Positions 29,304 to 62,652 of a DNA stretch of 64,000 nt are shown here, piece by piece (the stretch's first letter is position 1; every line of letters begins with the position of its first letter). This stretch comes from an uncultured Mycoplasmatota bacterium (GTDB taxonomy: Bacteria > Bacillota_I > Bacilli_A > RF39 > UBA660), in contig CANPIX010000001.1 in NCBI GenBank assembly GCA_947574215.1, positions 15,201 to 79,200 of the forward strand, read 5' to 3'. Below the pieces are notes generated by a model that ran no database searches, was not told the origin of the DNA, and saw only the letters and a list, made by a program, of their open reading frames with translations. Made by a program: the position numbers and the translations under genes.

Positions 29304-30587
29304 TTATCTAATTTTTCCCAACGAATCTTCCTCAATAGTATTTAAACGTTTTAAATCTTTTTCTGAGATTTGAATAACTTTTCCGCAACATGGATAAAAA
29401 TTTTTATTTCCATACACAATCCATATTATATTTTCATTTTTTAAATCTTCTTTAGGCATATTTCCAGGCCCAGGAATTCCATCCGTAAATACAATTTTAT
29501 TAATTTCTTTTTTCGCAGTAAAAGATCGTACCGCTAAATCCCAATCTTCTGTCCAAGCAAAATGAGAAGAATTTTCAGGAATTTCAAAATTATCAATATC
29601 TTTTGTTGATTTGATTTCTTTCCATCCCCAAAATTTTTCGTTAAAACATCCTACTTTTAATTTTGAATAGGAAAAAATGTTTTTTACGATTCTTAAGAAT
29701 GCTTTTACCAATTCTAAACTAACAGAGCCTGAAATATCAATCTGAACTTCCGTTTCACATTCTTCTTCTAAATCCGTTTCTTCTAAGCGATACGCATAAT
29801 TATTTTCTGCTATGCTTCTTCGTTGGCTCCAAATAATTTCTTCCTTTTCACTTTCTTTACGGAGCAAAAGTTCCCAATTAATTGTTTTTTCGCTTTCACC
29901 AACATTTCCTATTACCATAGAAGAAGACTTTTCTTCTTTCTTTTTTAAAACTCTTTCTTTCATTTGCTTATAATTTTGTTTGGCTTTTTGAAGTCGTTCT
30001 TGTCTATTTTCTGAAAATTCTTGATTTTCTTTTATTTCTTCAAACTCAAAATTATCTTCTAATTGCTCTTTTGCTTTTACAAACGCATCTTCCCATAAAC
30101 TATGATCACTTCCCGAAAACTCTTTTGCATTTGATTGGGTTTTCTTTTCTTTAATTAAAATCTCATAAAGTTCATCTGCTGAATAATTAAGTGCACCTGG
30201 AATATTCACATATCCTTGTTTTATTTTAAATCCATCTCTTTCTAGATTGGCATTAATAATGGCATCGGTTGCTTCGTTCCATACATCCAAATTTCTTTTT
30301 TTCTTATTATATTCTAAACGAAAAGGATGCCAAAACTTATTGTGCATTAACTCATGTGCTATTAAAAACAATCGATCGTTTTCATTCAATGTTTTCAAAT
30401 AATTTGGATCAATATATATTTTTTTACCATCCGTTGCAGCCGTATGATATTTTAAATGTTCATTAAATTCAAAAGAAGTATTTGCAATGTTACTTCCAAA
30501 ATGAGGATATTTTAAAAGTAATAATTGAATTGTCTCTTCTAATAATTTTTGTTCTTCCTTCATAAGTCTCCTAAAAAGCAACAACAC
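29304..30587 (-). CDS. HExxH putative metallopeptidase-like N-domain + VWA-like C-domain protein (DUF2201-type MoxR partner)
   Basis: HELMHNKFWHP...NEATDAIIN at the N-terminus. The C-terminal domain resembles VWA-like partners of MoxR ATPases. Overlaps the upstream ORF by 17 nt. Confidence 0.5.
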   Translation of the reverse strand: MLLLFRRLMKEEQKLLEETIQLLLLKYPHFGSNIANTSFEFNEHLKYHTAATDGKKIYIDPNYLKTLNENDRLFLIAHELMHNKFWHPFRLEYNKKKRNLDVWNEATDAIINANLERDGFKIKQGYVNIPGALNYSADELYEILIKEKKTQSNAKEFSGSDHSLWEDAFVKAKEQLEDNFEFEEIKENQEFSENRQERLQKAKQNYKQMKERVLKKKEEKSSSMVIGNVGESEKTINWELLLRKESEKEEIIWSQRRSIAENNYAYRLEETDLEEECETEVQIDISGSVSLELVKAFLRIVKNIFSYSKLKVGCFNEKFWGWKEIKSTKDIDNFEIPENSSHFAWTEDWDLAVRSFTAKKEINKIVFTDGIPGPGNMPKEDLKNENIIWIVYGNKNFYPCCGKVIQISEKDLKRLNTIEEDSLGKIR

Positions 30588-30960
30588 TAAAATGATACAA
30601 ATCTTCTGAAATATTTTTTATATTTTCTTGACATTGAATAGTAAAGACAACAATTACATTTTCAGGAAGCGTATAGCCATGAAATTCACGATTTTTTATC
30701 AAATTTATAAAACGATTTTGTTCTTCTTTTTTAATTTGATCTATTAAACGAATAACAAAATATGTGATACTCCCATTACTTGAAACTCGATCCAATTGTT
30801 TTTGAAAAAGAGGTTCACCAAAAGGAGTTCCGATCAAATAAGGATCTTTTATTTTGGCATCCATAAACACCGTTTGACCTAAATCCCTATAAAACTCGTC
30901 TAATATAATAACACAAGTACTATTTACTCCCTTTTGTAATTCAATTAATTCTTTATTCAT
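30571..30960 (-). CDS. hypothetical protein, translationally coupled between the AAA ATPase and the VWA-like protein
   Basis: ORF overlapping both neighbours by 4 nt and 17 nt. Confidence 0.4.
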   Translation of the reverse strand: MNKELIELQKGVNSTCVIILDEFYRDLGQTVFMDAKIKDPYLIGTPFGEPLFQKQLDRVSSNGSITYFVIRLIDQIKKEEQNRFINLIKNREFHGYTLPENVIVVFTIQCQENIKNISEDLYHFSVVAF

Positions 30961-33044
30961 CGGCTAACACCTTCTTTTATTTCTAACGATTCCATATTTT
31001 CTCGTTCTTTTAATTCATAAATAAATTCCATTCTCTTTTCGTCTTTTCCAATCCAACACAAATCGTATAAATCTCGATATTCAGGATCACAATATTCTTT
31101 TATAAATTTCCGACATTCCGCCACTTCCAATTCGTTTGCAAATAAAAGTGCAGAAACCAAAGCGTATCTTTCATTACTATCTCTAGGCAAATCAGTTTGA
31201 GTGTAATTTTTATTAACTACATCTTCCACCGAAAGTGTCATTTGATTGTAATAAGAAAAAAATTCTTCTGCCCAATACTCACGAAGCTTAGTGTGTATTG
31301 AAATTTTTAAAATATCTTCTACATCTTTTCCACTATATTTTCCCGCTTTTAAATTTTTTTCAAAAAGATAAAGTGTATTAGAAATGGAAACCCATCCACG
31401 AGGATCATTGGTTCTTCCTTTGCATCCCCATTTATCTAGTTGCTCTTCTCCTACTTCTGGTTCTTCATAAAAGTAGGAAATATCTTCTATTCTTTCACTT
31501 TTTCCAGTGCTTAAATACTTAGACAAAATATAATGGATAACCTGAGGGTGAACTTTGTTTGGTATAGCGAATTCAAAAAGCCATTCTCCCACCTTCGGCT
31601 CCATATCAAAAATGTGATCAAAACGTTTTTCTAATGGTTCGGCAAGATCTTGTGCAATGTTAGAGTATTTTTTTTGATTACCCGTTGCCACAATAACGAC
31701 ATTTTCTGGAAGTTTTAAACCTCCATTCATTTCTATCAAACGATTCAAAACCAAAGTATAAACAAGTCCTTGTACTGTTGGCTTTACATTTAGTAGTTCA
31801 TCCAATAGAAGAACAATCTTTTTTTCATTTTTTTTACTTCTTTCATACAAAGTATCAGCTAAATCATTTAAATTTTGGATATTTTCTTGAATTAATTTTT
31901 TTTCTTCTTCACTTGCACATCTTAACATAGCTTCTTTGTAAAAATCTGGAGGTATGCTTTGACCCGTTTGTAGATTTATAGATCCAACTACTTTTTCTGG
32001 AAACATATTGTTTGTTAATTTCAGATAAATTAAATCAGGATAAAGTGATTTTATTCTTTCTGTCTTTCCAATTCCAGATGGTCCACGCAAAAGTACAGAT
32101 TGTCCTGATTCAATCCAATTGTGTATAAGCTCTGTATCTGTCATTTTAACTCTTTCTTCTGCTTTGGTTTCATCTGGGTTCATTTTTTGTAATCTCGTTT
32201 TTCTTGGTTCTTTACTTGACTCTATTGTTTTTGCTACTTGGAAGTTTTTTGGAACGTTTACTACTTTAGCAAAATATTGATCCAAAAATTTTTTAATATT
32301 GGTATTATTAAAATCTCCTTTGTAATTTCTTTCTTTATTAAATTGAACACCAGAAAACAAAATAATTTTGGCAAGAGCTATATTTTCTTTTTCAGAAATC
32401 AGCCATTTTATCGGTTCTACTTCTATCCAATAAGGTTTTCCCTCTTTTATGGCTTCTCCATTCGATAAAGTTTGTTCTTTTCCATTAGAATCTCCTATAA
32501 ATCGAATGTATTTTTTATCATTATAAAAATACGTATCAAAAGTACGCAACTTAAAATCCGTATCGTATTTGTCATAAGCTATAGAATCAGCAGGATATTT
32601 TACTTCAGTTTTTAGAAGTTTTCCCCTTTTAAAGTTTTTTTCTAATTCTTTTTCTACGGCTTTAGAAACAACTGTTTGTGGCCATTCAAAGCATTCTACT
32701 TCAACAACTCCGTTTGCCCCTCTCACTTCGTTCGAGGAGATGGATTGGATTACTGAGTAAGGTAAAGCTGGACGACACCCAACTTTCCTATAATGAACAT
32801 TATACCAATGACTATCTCCAATCGAGTCAACCGCGCAGGCATCGTTATCTACAGGTGTTTTGCTCCACCACCAGCCAGTTCGATTTTTTAAATGTTCTTC
32901 TTCATTTGTATAAAAAAAATCTGATACTGCTCCTCCTAATAAAATAGAAAAATCAGATATAGCACACTTTGTCCCATATTTTTTTAGCACTTCTAATTGC
33001 TTTTCTCCAAATATTTGTTCTTCTGTTAAAAATGTAAAATCCAT
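30957..33044 (-). CDS. DGR target protein: N-terminal C-type-lectin-like variable domain fused to a MoxR/AAA_5 ATPase
   Basis: AAA_5 motifs: Walker A LLRGPSGIGKTERI, Walker B LLLDELLNV, and sensor VATGNQ. Residues ~75-100 are encoded by the VR. A WWWSKT...VGCRPAL signature resembles DUF1566/FGE-type CLec targets. Confidence 0.75.
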   Translation of the reverse strand: MDFTFLTEEQIFGEKQLEVLKKYGTKCAISDFSILLGGAVSDFFYTNEEEHLKNRTGWWWSKTPVDNDACAVDSIGDSHWYNVHYRKVGCRPALPYSVIQSISSNEVRGANGVVEVECFEWPQTVVSKAVEKELEKNFKRGKLLKTEVKYPADSIAYDKYDTDFKLRTFDTYFYNDKKYIRFIGDSNGKEQTLSNGEAIKEGKPYWIEVEPIKWLISEKENIALAKIILFSGVQFNKERNYKGDFNNTNIKKFLDQYFAKVVNVPKNFQVAKTIESSKEPRKTRLQKMNPDETKAEERVKMTDTELIHNWIESGQSVLLRGPSGIGKTERIKSLYPDLIYLKLTNNMFPEKVVGSINLQTGQSIPPDFYKEAMLRCASEEEKKLIQENIQNLNDLADTLYERSKKNEKKIVLLLDELLNVKPTVQGLVYTLVLNRLIEMNGGLKLPENVVIVATGNQKKYSNIAQDLAEPLEKRFDHIFDMEPKVGEWLFEFAIPNKVHPQVIHYILSKYLSTGKSERIEDISYFYEEPEVGEEQLDKWGCKGRTNDPRGWVSISNTLYLFEKNLKAGKYSGKDVEDILKISIHTKLREYWAEEFFSYYNQMTLSVEDVVNKNYTQTDLPRDSNERYALVSALLFANELEVAECRKFIKEYCDPEYRDLYDLCWIGKDEKRMEFIYELKERENMESLEIKEGVSR
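32765..32838 (-). repeat. DGR variable repeat (VR) inside the target gene
   Basis: A 74-bp match to 34355-34428. 11 of 12 mismatches occur where the TR coding strand has A. Confidence 0.8.
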
Positions 33045-33119
33045 ATGACACTCACCTTTATTTTAATAATAACACAAATTGTAATTTTTTGGTATTTTCT
33101 TAGTACTTTGACATTTTTT

Positions 33120-34142
33120 TTACATTTTGGGATGTACTTTTTCTATAAACTTCTTACTTTCTTGTGTTTTTTTCACATGGTTATAAAAAGCATTTTTTCT
33201 CTCATAAACATATTTTTCATCGACTATTTTTTTCTCATACAACTTATCGATCGTTTTTAGATGTTTTTTCATTCGCTTTTTAGAAGATTGTCTTAATTTA
33301 ACTATAATTTTTCCGTTTTCTTTTACAATATGACGATATCCTAAAAAATCAATACCATTTTGAACGCAACCAATTTGCGTTTTTTCGTTTAAATTTAAAT
33401 CCAAATTTTTTCTACACATCTCTTCTATTTTTGTTTTACAATCTTTTAAAAACGCTTTCTCACAATGGATCAAAATCATATCATCCATATAACGAATATA
33501 ATGTTTCACTTGTAATCTTTCTTTTATCAAACGATCTATACCATTTAAATAAAATAAAGCAAACCATTGACTTGATTGATTTCCTAATGGTAGACCCTTA
33601 TTTACGTTATTGGGCTGTTCTTGGATCAATTTTTGAATCATCCAAATTTCATCCAAAGAAAAATCTAATTTCTCCAAAAGTTTTAATAAAATTGTGTGAT
33701 TTATACTTGGAAAATATTTTTTTATATCACACTTTAAAAAGTAAAACTGGTTACTTCCTTTTTTTCTATATTCTTTTTTTAAAAACAAATGCAAACGTTG
33801 AATCGCAAAATTGATACCTTTTCCTTTCTGACAAGCAACATTATCGTAAATTAATCTCTTTTCTAATTTTGGTTTTAAAGAATAATCACAAAAACAACGC
33901 ACTACCACTCGATCTTTAAAGGGAAGCGCTTCAATTAATCTTTCTTTTGGTTCATAAATTAAAAATTGTTTGTATTTTCCTAACTTGTATTTTCTGGTTG
34001 TAATTTCTTCTATAATTTTATAAATATTCATAGCCAGATTAATTTCAAACCGAATAACTTCTCCTTTATGTTGCTTCCCTTTTCGACAATGTTTATAGGA
34101 AAGATAAATATTTTCAAAAGTAAATATTTCTTCTAACTTCAT
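33120..34142 (-). CDS. DGR-type reverse transcriptase
   Basis: RT motifs including YMDD (YIRYMDDMILIH) and the DGR-characteristic LPLGNQSSQ. 340 aa. TR lies immediately upstream. Confidence 0.85.
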   Translation of the reverse strand: MKLEEIFTFENIYLSYKHCRKGKQHKGEVIRFEINLAMNIYKIIEEITTRKYKLGKYKQFLIYEPKERLIEALPFKDRVVVRCFCDYSLKPKLEKRLIYDNVACQKGKGINFAIQRLHLFLKKEYRKKGSNQFYFLKCDIKKYFPSINHTILLKLLEKLDFSLDEIWMIQKLIQEQPNNVNKGLPLGNQSSQWFALFYLNGIDRLIKERLQVKHYIRYMDDMILIHCEKAFLKDCKTKIEEMCRKNLDLNLNEKTQIGCVQNGIDFLGYRHIVKENGKIIVKLRQSSKKRMKKHLKTIDKLYEKKIVDEKYVYERKNAFYNHVKKTQESKKFIEKVHPKM

Positions 34143-34354
34143 AAATCTCCTTAAAAAAGAAACACTCTTTTCAATGTTCCAAAAAAATATTTCGTTGGTT
34201 CATCTAGAGTGTTTTTTATTCTTCTATTGCTTATTTAAAAAACGTAGCCAATAGAAAAGAAGAAAATTCCTTCACCTTACAATATTGATTTATTTTTCTT
34301 AAAATAAATTTCTCAAATTTGTTTTTTGGATTTTACAAAATCCCTTCAAAAGTG

Positions 34355-34428
34355 AATCTGGACGAGACCCAACTTTCCTATTATTAACATTATTCCAATT
34401 TCTATTTCCATTTTAGTTAACCGCGCAG
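34355..34428 (-). repeat. DGR template repeat (TR), intergenic between avd-like gene and RT
   Basis: Non-coding copy of the VR. In the VR reading frame it is dominated by AAT/AAC codons: aac, aat, aat, aat, aat, aat, aat, aat. Confidence 0.8.
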
Positions 34429-34476
34429 CAAAACGCCTCAAAAAAGAGGGCCTCACAAAATAAATTTTCTTCTTAA

Positions 34477-35070
34477 TTAAAGGCTTTTCAACCTAAAATC
34501 CTTATTTTTAAATCTTTCATCATCACTTTTTTTCCAAGCACCTATTAAATTGATACTCTTAGCAATTTGTTTTGCTATTTGTTTGTATTGCCGTTTTAAA
34601 ATACATCCAGATGATTCTGCTAACATAGAAATATAGCCAAGTAGTTTCAATTTAATAATGGCATCTTTTTGTAAATTCTCTCTTTGGATTTTGTTTTCTT
34701 TTGAATCCATTCGAATAAAGTTTGCTTCTAACAAAAGTTCTAAAGTATCTAAACAATAATTTTGCATGCGGTTTACAAAAACCCCACGAAACTTTTTAGG
34801 AGATTTTTCGGTGACTACCAAAACATACGCGCCTAATTTTTTAATCTGAGTAATCACAATTAAATCGTTGGCATTAAATGGAATTTTTTCTATTTGTTTT
34901 AATTCCTCGTCAGCTAAAATAAATTCTTCTTTTTCTTTATATTTTTCATTATTTGCCTTACATATTTCCTTTTTTACTGCCAATATATCTTCTTTTGTAT
35001 TCAAATTTTCTTCCATATCCAAAACAATTTTAGGAATTTTTAAATTGTTTGCTCTACTAACTTGCAACAC
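34477..35070 (-). CDS. avd: Avd-like accessory variability determinant (four-helix-bundle family), with N-terminal extension or internal start
   Basis: The C-terminal ~130 aa resemble the Avd/four-helix-bundle family: SPKKFRGVFVNRMQNY ~ PKEE+YGLTSQ+RRAA, and LKLLGYIS...QIAKSINLIGAWKKS ~ AKDLGYI...ISKMLNGLIKSL. Basic. Ends 49 nt before TR. Confidence 0.55.
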   Translation of the reverse strand: MLQVSRANNLKIPKIVLDMEENLNTKEDILAVKKEICKANNEKYKEKEEFILADEELKQIEKIPFNANDLIVITQIKKLGAYVLVVTEKSPKKFRGVFVNRMQNYCLDTLELLLEANFIRMDSKENKIQRENLQKDAIIKLKLLGYISMLAESSGCILKRQYKQIAKQIAKSINLIGAWKKSDDERFKNKDFRLKSL

Positions 35071-35093
35071 AATACCACTACCTTATTTTTTTT

Positions 35094-35102
35094 ATTATAG
35101 CA
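35094..35102 (-). promoter_or_regulatory. extended -10 (TGCTATAAT) candidate promoter for the DGR operon
   Basis: Minus-strand TGnTATAAT about 25 nt upstream of the avd ORF. No strong -35 element. Confidence 0.3.
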
Positions 35103-35150
35103 AAAAAAAATAGAAGTTTCATCTACTTTATTAAAAATAAATTTTGTTTT

Positions 35151-35603
35151 TTAATCTTCTATTTGAACATATCTTTTTTCTGGAAGTTCTTTTTCCTTTT
35201 CTTTTTTAGGGATAGTAAGAGTTAAAGTACCATTTTTAAATGAAGCTTTTACTTCTTCTGTTGTAACATTTTTTCCTACATAAAAACTTCTTGAACATTC
35301 TCCAAAATATCTTTCACGTCTTACAAAAAAATCTTTTTCTTCTTTTTGATTTTCTTGATTAATTGACGCTTGAATTGTTAGATACCCTTCTTCCACTTCA
35401 ATTTTAATATTTTCTTTTAGATAGCCAGGTAAATCTACTAGAATGGAATAAAAATTTTCGTTCTCTATAATATCGGTTTTCATTATTTTTGCTTCCGGTT
35501 TGTTTAAAAATGGGTCTTTAAATAAATCATCCCACAAATCAAAATCATTTTTTCTTGGTATCAACATTATACAAAATCCATCCTTTCTAGTACTAGAATA
35601 CAC
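35151..35603 (-). CDS. Hsp20/alpha-crystallin family small heat-shock protein
   Basis: ACD-like core (ILVDLPGY...FFVRRERYFGECSRSF...NGTLTLTIPK). Confidence 0.8.
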   Translation of the reverse strand: MYSSTRKDGFCIMLIPRKNDFDLWDDLFKDPFLNKPEAKIMKTDIIENENFYSILVDLPGYLKENIKIEVEEGYLTIQASINQENQKEEKDFFVRRERYFGECSRSFYVGKNVTTEEVKASFKNGTLTLTIPKKEKEKELPEKRYVQIED

Positions 35604-59229: not shown

Positions 59230-59814
59230 TTATGCTCCTTGTCTTCCTAGATATTCAATTACTATAGTTAATAAAGGATTTGTAAAATAAGAAGTTGAAC
59301 TAATATTTGGCAAATCAGGGGAATCTAAATAAATATTCTGATCCGTTAAATTTACCAATTCGTACAAATCCGTTGTATTGTTTATTGCGATTATACCTTG
59401 TCCTACCAATTGTATTGGTATCTCTTCTGTTGTAAACTGACTTGTTCCAATATAAATGTTGTCTGTTCCAACTTTTTTAAATCCAAGAGATACAAAATCG
59501 GTTGTTTTATCAAATACATTATTTTTATGTAAAACATAAGCATTTACTGTAAAAGTAATTTTATAATAACCTTCCATATTAAACTTAATCGTTTCATCTG
59601 TAGTATCTAGCGTAATTAAATCACTGATATCTAATTCTTCTCTATCAATAGGAAGTCGATCTTTTGCAGGAACGGCGAGTCCATTACCTAATGTACCATT
59701 ATTGAAAGTGGCAAGATAAGCAGAGCGAGCAATGTTTGTTCCTGCGGGTCCAACTGGTCCTGTTGCACCTTGCGGAATTGTAAAATTTATTTCATAACTT
59801 TCGCCTTGGTTCAT
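59230..59814 (-). CDS. BclA-like short-collagen-triplet protein with C-terminal C1q/TNF-like domain (paralog 1)
   Basis: N-terminal motif YEINFTIPQGATGPVGPAG followed by a beta-rich ~160-aa domain. Confidence 0.5.
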   Translation of the reverse strand: MNQGESYEINFTIPQGATGPVGPAGTNIARSAYLATFNNGTLGNGLAVPAKDRLPIDREELDISDLITLDTTDETIKFNMEGYYKITFTVNAYVLHKNNVFDKTTDFVSLGFKKVGTDNIYIGTSQFTTEEIPIQLVGQGIIAINNTTDLYELVNLTDQNIYLDSPDLPNISSTSYFTNPLLTIVIEYLGRQGA

Positions 59815-59836
59815 CGAAATTTCCTTTCTTAAAATA

Positions 59837-60175
59837 CTAAGGAGTCGTATTGGTTGGTGTTATCGTTACACTTGCTTGACTACCTGCAGCTCCTGTTGTT
59901 ACAGTTCCTATTACTAATCTAGGCGCTGGTCCTGTTGGTCCTTCTGCTCCTTGTACTCCTTGTGGTCCGACTGGTCCTGTCGGTCCTTCTGCTCCTTGTG
60001 GTCCTGCTGGCCCTGCTATTCCTTGGTCTCCTTTTTCTCCTTTATCCCCTTGTGGTCCCATAGCTCCTGGATCCCCTTGGTCTCCTTTTGGTCCTTGAGC
60101 TCCTTGTGGAATTACAAAATCAAGTGTATAACTAGATGCATTATTTGCATCTGCATAAATATCATTAAAATCCAT
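59837..60175 (-). CDS. collagen-like GXY-repeat protein (paralog 2, lacks globular C-domain)
   Basis: [20 protein letters not shown], about 20 GXY triplets, and C-terminal [20 protein letters not shown]. Confidence 0.5.
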
Positions 60176-60195
60176 ATTTTTTTTCCTTTCTTTTT

Positions 60196-60642
60196 TTAAT
60201 TCGATGGTGTAATAGTTACTTTTGCGGGTGTACCTGGTGCTCCCGTTATAACTTTCCCTATCATAAATGTTGGTGCTATACCATCTTCACCAGCGGGTCC
60301 TGTTGGTCCTGGTATCCCTTGAATACCTTGCGGTCCAGTTGGTCCGATAGATCCAGAAGGCCCTTGTAGTCCTTGTGGTCCCATTGGTCCTGTTGCTCCA
60401 TTTGGAATTGTAAATTCTAAAACTGAATTTTCATTAGTTCCTACATTTTTAACAGACGCATCGCTTCCTGGAGCACCTTGTATTGTTCTACCAACCGTTA
60501 CAGTGGCAGGTCCTTGTGGTCCTGTTGGTCCTGTTGGTCCTATGATTCCACGACTTGAACAACAACATCCTTGTACAGAATGATTTCTGTTGTAACTTTC
60601 CACATATTCACACGCTTTTTGGTATTCTCTACTATTGTTCAT
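60196..60642 (-). CDS. collagen-like GXY-repeat protein (paralog 3, internally duplicated motifs)
   Basis: [12 protein letters not shown]. Internal [17 protein letters not shown]-terminal [19 protein letters not shown]. Confidence 0.5.
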
Positions 60643-60765
60643 GTTTCTCTCCTTTCATAAGTAATATATGAAGGGAAATCATTTTTCGTATGTTGATTTG
60701 CCTTATAGAAATTCATTTTCACAAAAAAAGATATATTCTAAAAACTTATATATCCTTATGTTATA

Positions 60766-61251
60766 TTAATCGATTTTCTTTATGACAAGGCTTGCATTTT
60801 CATCGATTGCAACTTCTGTTTCCACATCAGAGGCAATTATAATTCTTATAGTACTATCTTTTTGCAAGTTACAAATTGTATTACCACTAAATACGGTTTT
60901 TTCATTGATAGCTAATGATTTGGTCTTTTCTGTTGCTAAAACTAAATCTCCGTTATCCCAAACTGATAAAGTTATATTGGCCTTTTTTGAAGTGGCAACG
61001 TCTACAACAAAACTTATCTCATAGATACCATTTTGTTCAATTGCAATACTATTTTCTGTAGTATAATTCATATGATTTGCAAGCATTTTATCATTTAAAG
61101 GAAGAATTACAGAGTTATTTATTCCCAAATGCAACACATTTAAACAATTACTATAAATTCCTCCATAAGCATTCAGTCCATTGGATGGTCCAACAGGACC
61201 TGTTGGTCCTTGTGGAATTGTAAAATCCAACACAAAGTTTTTCGGTTTCAT
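60766..61251 (-). CDS. BclA-like protein (paralog 4)
   Basis: [16 protein letters not shown]-motif and a beta-rich C-domain. Confidence 0.5.
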   Translation of the reverse strand: MKPKNFVLDFTIPQGPTGPVGPSNGLNAYGGIYSNCLNVLHLGINNSVILPLNDKMLANHMNYTTENSIAIEQNGIYEISFVVDVATSKKANITLSVWDNGDLVLATEKTKSLAINEKTVFSGNTICNLQKDSTIRIIIASDVETEVAIDENASLVIKKID

Positions 61252-61671
61252 ATTTTTTTCCTTTCTTTCTAATTAAAATTCAATTATTGACTATTACTTT
61301 TTATGATTTTATGTTTAAACATTCGTATTCATTTTTCATAAATAAAATTTATTTTTGAATATTAATATTGATTATTTAAAAAATTCTTAATTTTACATCT
61401 ATTTTTTATAAAGTAAAACAGACTAAACTTTTCTATTTTCTTGTTAAATAAAAATTTAATTAACTTTTTAAGTGTTTGGAGTATTGTTCTATTTTCTTAA
61501 TATTGACTAGAATTTTATTTTTCAAGTAGACCTTATAAAGTTTATATAAAATTTTTCTACTAATTCAAAAGATAATCTTTTCCTTTTCTAATTTTTTTTA
61601 ACAGCAAATTATCTTTACACTATTTTATGAAAAAGAAAAAAAATCGTTCCAAAACAAAAAAAATTTCCTTT

Positions 61672-62148
61672 TTAATAAGGAAACTTTTTGATAATTAAAT
61701 TAGCATTTTCTAAAATTCCGTTGGAAGTGCTACTTTTATTAAATTCTATAACTAATCGAACAGAAGAATTTGCTTTTAAAATTTTTGTTTGTGAAAAATA
61801 AATTTCTTGCGAATTGTCTAATGAAATTGTTATAAAATTTTCTTCTACTCCATTGTCTTCGGTTTTTATAATTACAGAAGAACTTGTAGTGGAACCTGTT
61901 TCTTTTAATCTACCACTAAAAGAGATTTCATAATATCCTATTTCATTTAAAAAAATCGTGTTATTTGTAAATGCAAATATATTAAAATTTTCTGGTACAA
62001 CATTAGTTCTTATTAAAGTTAAATAACTAGCTGATGTAGCGTTTTCAAAATTTGTATAAAAAATCGCTGTAATTCCAATGGGACCTGTGGGTCCTGTTGG
62101 TCCTTCTGGTATGATAAAATCAAGTGTATAGTCTGAATCCAAATCCAT
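61672..62148 (-). CDS. BclA-like protein (paralog 5)
   Basis: [18 protein letters not shown]-motif and a beta-rich C-domain ending LIIKKF. Confidence 0.5.
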   Translation of the reverse strand: MDLDSDYTLDFIIPEGPTGPTGPIGITAIFYTNFENATSASYLTLIRTNVVPENFNIFAFTNNTIFLNEIGYYEISFSGRLKETGSTTSSSVIIKTEDNGVEENFITISLDNSQEIYFSQTKILKANSSVRLVIEFNKSSTSNGILENANLIIKKFPY

Positions 62149-62163
62149 AGTTTCCTCCCATTT

Positions 62164-62652
62164 TTACAATTTTTGAAAAGAAAAACGTTTTATATTTAAA
62201 GAAACATTTTCTAATAAAGCGTCTGAATTTCCATTTTTTTGAAAAATAATAGCTACTTTTTGTAAAGAGCCATATTCTCCCATTTTGATTTGAGAAAAAA
62301 ATATTTCTTTGGTTCCCGTTTGCAATTCTATTGAAATTAAATTATTAGAAAATCCATTAGTATTTTGAGTTTTTAAGATAACATTGGCACCTAAATTCGT
62401 GTTTGTTTCTTTAATCGTTCCTGTTAAAGTATACTGAAAATACCCTGTATCTGTAAAATAGATATATTCATCATCAGACGTAAAAAGAGAAGAATCTGGT
62501 GGAGATTTAAATGTATTTAAAATCATTAAATTGCCATTCGTTGAAGAAGGATTGTACGTAACGTATATGTTTGGCTCATTGGCAATAGGTCCAGTAGGTC
62601 CTGTAATTCCCCTAGGTATCGTAAAATCTATTTTGTATTCTTTTGCATTCAT
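62164..62652 (-). CDS. BclA-like protein (paralog 6)
   Basis: IDFTIPRGITGPTGPIA N-motif and a beta-rich C-domain ending LNIKRF. Confidence 0.5.
   Translation of the reverse strand: MNAKEYKIDFTIPRGITGPTGPIANEPNIYVTYNPSSTNGNLMILNTFKSPPDSSLFTSDDEYIYFTDTGYFQYTLTGTIKETNTNLGANVILKTQNTNGFSNNLISIELQTGTKEIFFSQIKMGEYGSLQKVAIIFQKNGNSDALLENVSLNIKRFSFQKL

Follow-up and report, generated by a model that had tools for sequence, protein, structure and literature searches.

The sequence considered here is a stretch of 64,000 nucleotides (nt) from an uncultured Mycoplasmatota bacterium (GCA_947574215.1, contig CANPIX010000001.1, positions 15,201-79,200 of the forward strand). We call it the window, and all coordinates below are counted from its first letter. 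On its minus strand lie an avd gene, a template repeat (TR) and a gene for a reverse transcriptase (RT), in this order, followed by a target gene that carries a variable repeat (VR). We read the locus as a chromosomal and currently active diversity-generating retroelement (DGR) with the avd-TR-RT layout. Its host would be an uncultured gut bacterium of low GC content, from a lineage of metagenome-assembled genomes (MAGs) of Bacilli/'Tenericutes'-like character. This reading is drawn from sequence comparisons, and we would put its probability at about 0.93. No other DGR architecture is as common as this order (Wu et al. 2018, PMC5758913), and the core of the element is ordinary; its variant features are a long Avd, a VR placed N-terminally on an AAA+ ATPase and a TR prone to stop codons. 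A preliminary description of this DNA spoke of a canonical avd-TR-RT core. The word suits the gene order and the mechanism; it does not suit the length of Avd or the type of target. The principal features are as follows (aa, amino acids; IMH, initiation of mutagenic homing).

34477-35070, minus strand: avd gene, 197 aa, GTG start
34349-34428, minus strand: TR, an 80-nt repeat with variable adenines at 34376-34418
34358-34372, minus strand: IMH*-like segment of the TR, A-free and GC-rich
34349-34357, minus strand: TR-specific 3' flank, ATTCACTTT, which pairs with the spacer
33120-34142, minus strand: DGR reverse transcriptase, 340 aa, with catalytic D139, YMDD at residues 218-221 and LGNQSSQ at residues 186-192
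30957-33044, minus strand: target gene, 695 aa; residues 1-265 form an N-terminal domain with the VR, residues ~300-480 a MoxR-like AAA+ domain, and a C-terminal region follows
32759-32838, minus strand: VR inside the target gene, codons ~69-96 (CAVDSIGDSHWYNVHYRKVGCRPALPY)
32768-32782, minus strand: IMH-like end of the VR, GC-rich, then a VR-specific CTTTACC
32717-32739, minus strand: candidate target-site hairpin, CTCCTC-loop-GAGGGG, within coding sequence, 28 nt downstream of the VR end

Both reading frames of the core lie where the preliminary description had placed them, the RT with its YMDD and LPLGNQSSQ motifs and the Avd-like frame with its 197 codons. Its distances need small corrections. 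The avd stop is 48 nt from the TR instead of 49, and the TR is 206 nt from the RT gene when counted from the end of the repeat, or 215 nt from the homology boundary at 34358, instead of 213.

Template repeat, variable repeat and recent turnover

On the coding strand the TR reads CTGCGCGGTTAACTAAAATGGAAATAGAAATTGGAATAATGTTAATAATAGGAAAGTTGGGTCTCGTCCAGATTCACTTT. The VR is its only partner in the window, with 83% identity over 80 nt, and among the repeats listed for the window outside the collagen-like arrays mentioned below, the pair is the longest and best-matching one with two copies. Mismatches between TR and VR fall at adenines of the TR in 11 of 14 cases (binomial p=0.001), and across 42 related loci the same holds for 443 of 518 mismatches (p=7e-106). 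If the G of the conserved GATTCAC (34358 in the window) is taken as position 0 of the 42-locus profile, adenine mismatches fill positions -60 to -15 and are absent from the A-free, GC-rich last 15 nt (-14 to 0). At position +1 the TR has A and the VR has C in all 42 loci. Read in the frame of the VR, the TR is a run of AAY codons. One observation fits this pattern poorly: a mismatch in the window lies at a C (34366 in the TR, 32776 in the VR). It is private to the window assembly, and a near-identical strain (L081) matches the TR there. Taken as a whole, the profile is that of a DGR and has an IMH-like boundary.

Four contigs of near-identical strains, obtained in other sequencing runs, could be compared with the window by gapped alignment. 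The TR is identical to that of the window in all four. The VR of L081 has 11 differences in 53 nt compared to 21 in 3541 nt of flanks, that is, 0.6% (Fisher p=2e-13). Ten of these eleven are at TR adenines, and the remaining one is the non-adenine mismatch of the window just described. A third sample has yet another variant at the VR start. Since the VR differs at ten adenine-templated sites while the TR has stayed the same, the VR has been turned over recently and, on this indirect evidence from populations, the element is apparently active. It might be argued instead that we are looking at a DGR relic which no longer mutates its target and whose TR/VR differences are old. The closest species-level relative (L001) does have a premature stop in the RT in addition to a stop in the VR, and the non-adenine difference in the window could be taken in the same sense. 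However, the window has an intact RT with its catalytic residues, an intact Avd and an intact target, and the adenine-site changes in L081 next to an unchanged TR, like the further VR start of the third sample, speak against a relic. We therefore regard a relic as very unlikely.

The hairpin downstream of the VR has a helix of 5-6 base pairs (bp). Four of its pairs show compensatory changes, and these alter amino acids. In the alignment 82% of cells are paired, compared to 39-69% when the helix is slid. The target-site hairpin of the Bordetella phage DGR has a similar position (Wu et al. 2018, PMC5758913, Figure 1 legend), and the present one may be its counterpart, with moderate support because the helix is short.

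Avd, the chromosomal setting and the reverse transcriptase

The avd gene can be divided further, and a promoter-like site lies in front of it (pI, isoelectric point).

34873-35070, minus strand: Avd N-terminal extension, residues 1-66, clade-specific, acidic, pI 5.2
Residues 67-197, minus strand: Avd core, basic, pI 9.8
35094-35122, minus strand: promoter-like site with -35 ATGAAA at 35117-35122, a 17-nt spacer and an extended -10, TGCTATAAT, at 35094-35102

The average pI of Avd proteins is 9.5 (PMC5758913); a typical Avd is a small, basic four-helix bundle that assembles into a pentameric barrel. The likeness to Avd that had been noticed in the C-terminal part of the protein extends, in profile comparisons, from end to end over its C-terminal two thirds. 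Residues 70-182 cover the full length of Pfam bAvd (E=1e-4) and of NCBIfam DivGenRetAVD (E=8.6e-8), and the PHROG family 'Avd protein of DGR' matches with E=8.7e-17. DivGenRetAVD also matches each of 31 aligned relatives, at best with 9e-14. Several results weigh against the assignment. The scores are under the curated cut-offs, 23.2 bits against 40 for Pfam bAvd and 32.4 against 80 for NCBIfam NF033474. Sequence searches of the PDB with the single protein and with an Avd family profile found nothing. The AlphaFold2 model is mediocre (pLDDT, the predicted local distance difference test, is 67) and has three long helices and a beta-hairpin instead of four helices. A Foldseek search of the PDB with this model gave no significant match, the best relevant one being 2rld_E of the S23-ribosomal/four-helix family (probability 0.91 but E=0.8). 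Homology is significant even though the curated thresholds are not reached, and it is because of these scores that we call the protein a divergent relative of Avd. Of the Avd-like four-helix bundle in the preliminary description, then, the Avd part holds by profile homology; the fold is not convincingly reproduced by the structure model.

The protein had been described as about 60 aa longer than typical Avd, either by an N-terminal extension or because the true start is internal. We measure an excess of about 66 residues, and the comparison of sequences argues for a true extension that is conserved in the clade and under purifying selection. About 900 database proteins of 190-197 aa align with 95-100% of the query. 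More than 40 genome loci share the MLQVSR start and an open frame from there on, mostly with ATG where the window has GTG, and MLQVSRxxNLKIPK and several later positions of the extension are nearly invariant. The ratio of non-synonymous to synonymous substitution rates (dN/dS) is 0.32 in the extension and 0.10 in the core, with dS above 1. If the start were internal, Avd would have its normal length of about 125-130 aa (PMC5758913), and the first ~66 codons would belong to a leader that is not translated or would result from faulty annotation. The more distant DGRs recovered in the scan of these loci do have an Avd of 125-132 aa and no extension. The GTG start in the window and the low confidence with which AlphaFold models the extension (pLDDT below 50 except for one helix, residues 26-39) would agree with that. 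Yet codon 19 is the only other in-frame ATG within the extension, and the next one, at about codon 102, is already inside the Avd core. A promoter-like site precedes the GTG. The shared MLQVSR start and the dN/dS of the extension also speak against an internal start, and we have rejected it as highly improbable.

The promoter-like site contains the extended -10 that the preliminary description had proposed. It scores 10 of 12 in a consensus scan, with the TG extension and with four of six matches in the -35 hexamer, and is a consensus match only; the transcription start predicted from it is at about 35087.

With the extension alone, a Pfam search gave no match. An exhaustive HMMER search gave 17 representatives, all of them N-termini of proteins of 64-176 aa, and the match takes in the same stretch as in Avd. 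These short proteins are probably truncated copies of the long Avd, so that the extension has no other detectable context. We found no description of an extended Avd in the searchable literature. The acidic tail may be a regulatory or docking element added to the RT-Avd-RNA particle.

The element is part of a larger cassette, which includes two more genes downstream of the target.

30571-30960, minus strand: orf129, 129 aa, overlapping the target stop by 4 nt and the start of the next gene by 17 nt
29304-30587, minus strand: DUF2201_N protein, 427 aa, putative metallopeptidase-like (Pfam PF13203, E=4.6e-20; phrog_1314, E=4e-41)

A search of contigs with one genome per species gave 80 loci, and about 35-40 of them have the complete order avd-TR-RT-target-orf129-DUF2201 (about 30 have the DUF2201 gene in range). 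Most of the remaining loci end at a contig edge or belong to other DGR lineages. Nearly all of the hosts are MAGs from the gut that bear the labels Bacilli, Tenericutes or Clostridia, with one circular genome of 1.2 Mb; some of them apparently have small genomes. The flanks consist of housekeeping genes (hsp20, a gltX-like tRNA synthetase domain, a peptidyl-prolyl isomerase) in the same order in related genomes.

Could the cassette be borne by a phage, which would diversify its receptor-binding protein and so switch tropism like the Bordetella phage? PHROG contains relatives of RT and Avd, of the DUF2201_N protein and of the ATPase part of the target, and C-lectin domains of the DUF6273 type are known targets of phage DGRs (PMC10743442). 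The setting is that of a chromosome, however. In addition to the syntenic housekeeping flanks, 2.9 million viral contigs yielded one long-Avd relative with the family profile, compared to 451 RT relatives in genome contigs, and no close relative at all when searched with the single Avd protein. The target AAA+ ATPase has no features of a virion protein. A phage origin is hardly credible, and the flanks together with the near absence from viral contigs lead us to discard it. The ATPase-DUF2201_N pair does appear to circulate in phages as well, because the relatives in phrog_1297 (E=2.5e-34 for the ATPase part) and phrog_1314 are strong.

Two observations on the surroundings may be added. The start called for the upstream hsp20 gene (35151-35603) differs among assemblies (the window, L081 and L084), giving 150 aa or 138 aa; the frame in the window begins with GTG. 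At 59230-62652 on the minus strand there are five small paralogues (148-194 aa), in which a collagen-like Gly-Pro-Thr/Val run (FTIPQGATGPVGP...) is followed by a domain of ~130 aa. They are the source of the large repeat families D1-D4.

For the RT, the closest match in a sequence search of the PDB is 8ub7_A, the 328-aa bRT of the Bordetella phage, with E=1.1e-37. The runners-up are an unclassified RNA-directed DNA polymerase (2.8e-13) and a group II maturase (2e-12), and chains deposited as 'retron-type' match at only 3e-5. In the alignment with 8ub7_A the catalytic aspartates are conserved. The residues of bRT that contact the template base or the dNTP (PMC7826257; bioRxiv 10.1101/2023.10.23.563531), namely K29, F66, R74, I76, I181/G182 and Q187, are kept with a single replacement, I181 by L, which can be accepted because the DGR signature allows L. 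The counterparts of R74 and I181 are R68 and L186. Pfam RVT_1 is detected, and the phage RT family phrog_1423 matches with 332 bits (E=2e-98). The signature stands in the context KGLPLGNQSSQ. The SQ had been named as typical of DGR RTs, and LGNQSSQ indeed fits the published [I/V/L]GxxxSQ, where retroviral, non-LTR and group II RTs have QGxxxSP (PMC7826257). In profile comparisons DGR relatives score highest and no clustering with retron, Abi or group II RTs is seen, so that best matches and motif together support a place among the DGR RTs. Another class of RT (group II intron, retron, Abi or the defence-associated DRT) next to a coincidental repeat can be dismissed as next to impossible: although models of such classes match (NCBIfam group II maturase E=1e-23, Drt3a 9e-22 and retron St85 1e-13; PADLOC RT_UG17 4e-29 and Drt3a 7e-27), they do so as generic RT models only, far under the NCBIfam cut-offs (84 bits against 300 for TIGR04416, 78 against 200 for Drt3a, 51 against 235 for St85) and far below bRT and the DGR-type PHROG family, the motif is LGxxxSQ instead of QGxxxSP, Rfam at E<=1 has no match over 32500-35400 and hence no intron or msr/msd-like RNA there, and no such class can account for adenine-specific TR/VR changes with VR turnover between strains.

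An RNA scaffold and a possible course of retrohoming

Between the TR and the RT gene lies a spacer whose length, about 200-215 nt, is conserved. The same Rfam search assigns it to no family. Predicted helices connect it with the TR and with the end of avd (RBS, ribosome-binding site).

34143-34357, minus strand: structured TR-RT spacer RNA, ~215 nt
34463-34472, minus strand: P0, 5' strand, GAAGAAAATT, just after the avd stop, pairing with 34259-34268 (AATTTTCTTC)
34349-34356 (plus 34360-61) with 34271-34278 (plus 34269-70), minus strand: P1 (RNAalifold)
34338-43 with 34328-33, minus strand: hairpin P2
34301-09 with 34288-96, minus strand: hairpin P3
34259-68, minus strand: P0, 3' strand
34247-58 with 34220-30, minus strand: hairpin P4, followed by an A-rich linker
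34206-13 with 34161-68, minus strand: P5, an outer stem with an inner hairpin
34153-59, minus strand: U-run, then the RBS of the RT gene, AAGGAG, at 34147-52

In P1 the TR flank TTCACTTT (34349-34356) is paired with AAGGTGAA of the spacer (34271-34278). For P1-P4, RNAalifold on 21 sequences gives 36 pairs, 22 of them with compensatory changes. On a MAFFT alignment 95% of the cells are paired, compared to 42-55% when the helices are slid, and none of 500 shuffles reaches the observed value. A second subclade has TTTGCC paired with GGCAAA in P1. What tells against P1 is that its compensatory changes, although they affect three pairs, go back to one event between the two subclades. P0 was obtained with RNAalifold from a longer alignment of 11 sequences; its 10 bp are 100% paired and include four compensatory pairs, and the covariation score is matched by 0 of 500 shuffles. 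The spacer strand of P0 comes immediately 3' of the P1 strand, and P4 follows directly after it. All 21 sequences, when folded singly, form P5, and they do so with many different base pairs and many compensatory changes.

In the window and its clade, P5 is directly followed by CUUUUUU and then by the RBS of the RT gene (34153-34213); the second subclade (L037-type) has a weaker U-run. One may speculate that P5 and the U-run constitute an intrinsic terminator or an attenuator upstream of the RT. A terminator scan with a loop limit of 8 nt does not call them.

In the ribonucleoprotein (RNP) of the Bordetella phage, a duplex between TR and spacer (TR:Sp) positions the priming adenosine, and a duplex between avd and spacer (avd:Sp) serves as 'cPRT Stop' (bioRxiv 10.1101/2023.10.23.563531). 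By analogy P0 would be the counterpart of the avd:Sp duplex. If correct, retrohoming may be imagined as follows. A transcript that takes in avd, the TR and the ~215-nt spacer would fold into a scaffold in which the sequence after the avd stop pairs with the spacer (P0) and the TR flank ATTCACTTT pairs with AAGGTGAA (P1), adjoining P0. The RT, bound by Avd, would prime itself from the spacer strand of P1, around 34269-34271, and copy the TR from about 34357 upward, misincorporating at adenines. The cDNA would then replace the VR (32768-32838). Homing would use the A-free, GC-rich block common to TR and VR and would probably be guided in addition by the hairpin 28 nt downstream of the VR. The priming site and the roles of individual helices are inferred from the Bordetella phage.

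How close is this to the DGR of Bordetella phage BPP-1 (8ub7 series)? Shared are the order avd-TR-RT, the basic Avd core and the adenine-specific changes from TR to VR; an RT of about 340 aa with YMDD, [I/V/L]GxxxSQ and residues equivalent to R74 and I181; a GC-rich block without adenines with which both TR and VR end on the 3' side; and a hairpin downstream of the VR. The BPP-1 RNP also has the same succession of an avd:spacer duplex adjoining a TR:spacer duplex, then a stem-loop, then adenosines. Unlike the phage-borne BPP-1 element, the present one is chromosomal. Its target is downstream of the RT, whereas in BPP-1 it is upstream of avd, and its VR is near the N-terminus of an AAA+ ATPase, whereas in BPP-1 it is at the C-terminus of a tail-fibre protein. 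The 66-aa acidic extension of Avd, the in-frame stop in the TR, the longer spacer (~215 nt) and the extra helices P3 and P5 also distinguish it from BPP-1.

The diversified ATPase and stop codons in the repeats

No signal peptide, transmembrane segment or hydrophobic leader is evident by eye in the target, and its ATPase part is recognized by Pfam AAA_5 and AAA. By its sequence it would be a cytoplasmic MoxR-like AAA+ ATPase diversified near the N-terminus, and not a surface protein. The N-terminal 265 residues are modelled with high confidence (pLDDT 92.7); a Foldseek search of the PDB with them found nothing. A homologue with 65% identity shows Pfam DUF6273 over the WW...RPAL segment, just under the threshold, and the window target itself reaches no Pfam threshold for this domain. 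Since DUF6273 is a described C-lectin-like domain of DGR targets (PMC10743442), the domain that bears the VR is likely C-type-lectin-like.

The overlaps of orf129 with both of its neighbours suggest a translationally coupled member of an operon. It has tblastn matches of 34-63% identity in the same position at more than 20 loci and none in Pfam, NCBIfam, PADLOC or PHROG; a Walker-B-like VIILDE can be seen in it. The DUF2201_N gene is syntenic in most related loci and is a conserved partner of the AAA+ target. We propose that target, small reading frame and DUF2201_N gene are co-transcribed. The label 'HNH endonuclease' attached to phrog_1314 looks like a misnomer.

There are further arrangements of the target in related genomes. 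At seven loci (L006, L008, L010, L015, L009, L011 and L013; e. g. L008:9017-12225) a second, more divergent target paralogue with ~42% identity directly follows the RT, and the matching VR is carried by the closer homologue, which comes after orf129 at a further 3-4 kb. Such cassettes may have two targets. In one target homologue (P0122, 962 aa) the VR-type domain is tandemly duplicated at ~270-540, with a second WYWTK...RPALPY module ahead of the ATPase.

We know of other systems with which this target invites comparison. DGR-linked MoxR-vWA (VMAP) ternary conflict systems have been described in cyanobacteria and Thiohalocapsa (Kaur et al. 2020, PMC7159879; Dore et al. 2024, PMC10907252). There, as probably here, a DGR diversifies a C-type-lectin-like domain, the proposed sensor, in a cytoplasmic system with a MoxR-like AAA+ ATPase. 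In those systems the variable domain is C-terminal, either on the vWA protein or on a separate target, and the ATPase has a gene of its own, whereas here the domain is fused N-terminally to the ATPase. The partner here is DUF2201_N, in which Pfam finds no vWA at E<=0.01, and Pfam, NCBIfam and PADLOC detect no VMAP, peptidase, TIR or adaptor domain in orf129 or the neighbours. Of ATPase, vWA and VMAP, which make up the ternary system, only the ATPase (AAA_5/AAA) is detected, and the locus is not recognized as such a system. ATPase and DUF2201_N may nevertheless, by analogy, work like a MoxR-partner pair. The MoxR-vWA hosts are multicellular; the hosts here are gut MAGs with no known multicellular habit.

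A second likeness is with the tentaclins, or DUF6273 targets, of gut phage DGRs (PMC10743442), which have an N-terminal C-lectin-like domain with the VR, as the window target probably does. The motifs WW..(K/R)(T/S) and RPAL flank the variable hairpin in both. In tentaclins immunoglobulin-like domains follow and the proteins belong to phage particles; here an AAA+ ATPase follows, in a cellular operon. Cellular targets of a different kind also exist. TvpA of Treponema denticola and LdtA of Legionella pneumophila are secreted or surface lipoproteins diversified by DGRs in a C-terminal VR (see also Wu et al. 2018). The window target, with its N-terminal VR and without an evident export signal, is unlike them. 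An N-terminal VR is very rare: Wu et al. 2018 (PMC5758913) have it in only 3 of 372 cases. Roux et al. 2021 give VRs as systematically C-terminal, and ATPase targets are absent from the main text of that paper. In the DGR targets known to contain an NTPase, this part precedes the VR. In the searchable literature we found no paper that links DGRs with DUF2201 or with RF39.

The TR has an in-frame TAA at 34413-34415. At the corresponding VR codon (32823-32825) the window has TCG, whereas L081 has TGG and L083 has TAT. The same or other in-frame stops are present in the TRs of many relatives, and at 8 of ~36 loci with a readable frame the deposited VR itself has a stop at a codon templated by a TR stop or by AAA. 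These are L001 (9312), L003 (9234) and L026 (9317 and 9335), counted together with L019, L030, L043, L062 and L073; six loci (L012, L023, L029, L042, L044 and L045) were left out of the survey as frame artefacts from indels or for a different register. Seven of the eight have an intact RT and, apart from the stop in the VR, no stop in the target. The L001 copy, with a premature TAA in the RT (L001:8376) plus a TGA in the VR, is probably decaying. Genetic code 4 was considered as the cause of TGA in related VRs and rejected; TAG and TAA occur there too.

Because the VR is N-terminal, a stop in it removes the whole ATPase. The DGR could thus also be a reversible on/off switch of the ATPase. From the in-frame stops of the TR and the position of the VR, at residues ~69-95 of a ~700-aa ATPase, repeated switching may be imagined, off by a nonsense VR and on again. 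Alternatively, a mixed VR population may lie behind the consensus of a MAG, or the cell may be able to do without the module. A still more tentative suggestion, which we regard as rather unlikely, is that these elements form a distinct gut Bacilli/'Tenericutes'-like DGR lineage in which retrohoming switches the ATPase/DUF2201_N pair off and on and at the same time redraws the specificity of a C-lectin-like sensor, with the Avd tail in a regulatory or docking role.

What would these findings mean? The locus adds an apparently active DGR with a complete, covariation-supported RNA scaffold. The architecture of avd:spacer and TR:spacer duplexes known from cryo-EM of the Bordetella phage RNP would recur in a distant, Firmicutes-type lineage, and the locus would offer a second natural system for testing DGR RNP architecture. 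The conserved acidic extension may provide a handle on the regulation or docking of Avd. A DGR acting on the N-terminus of a cytoplasmic MoxR-like ATPase would extend the reported association of DGRs with NTPase 'conflict systems' to bacteria that are not known to be multicellular. With VR stops in about a fifth of the related genomes, hypermutation could act as an on/off switch, and if this is true, the product would be an intracellular, phase-variable and hypervariable sensor, possibly for anti-phage defence.

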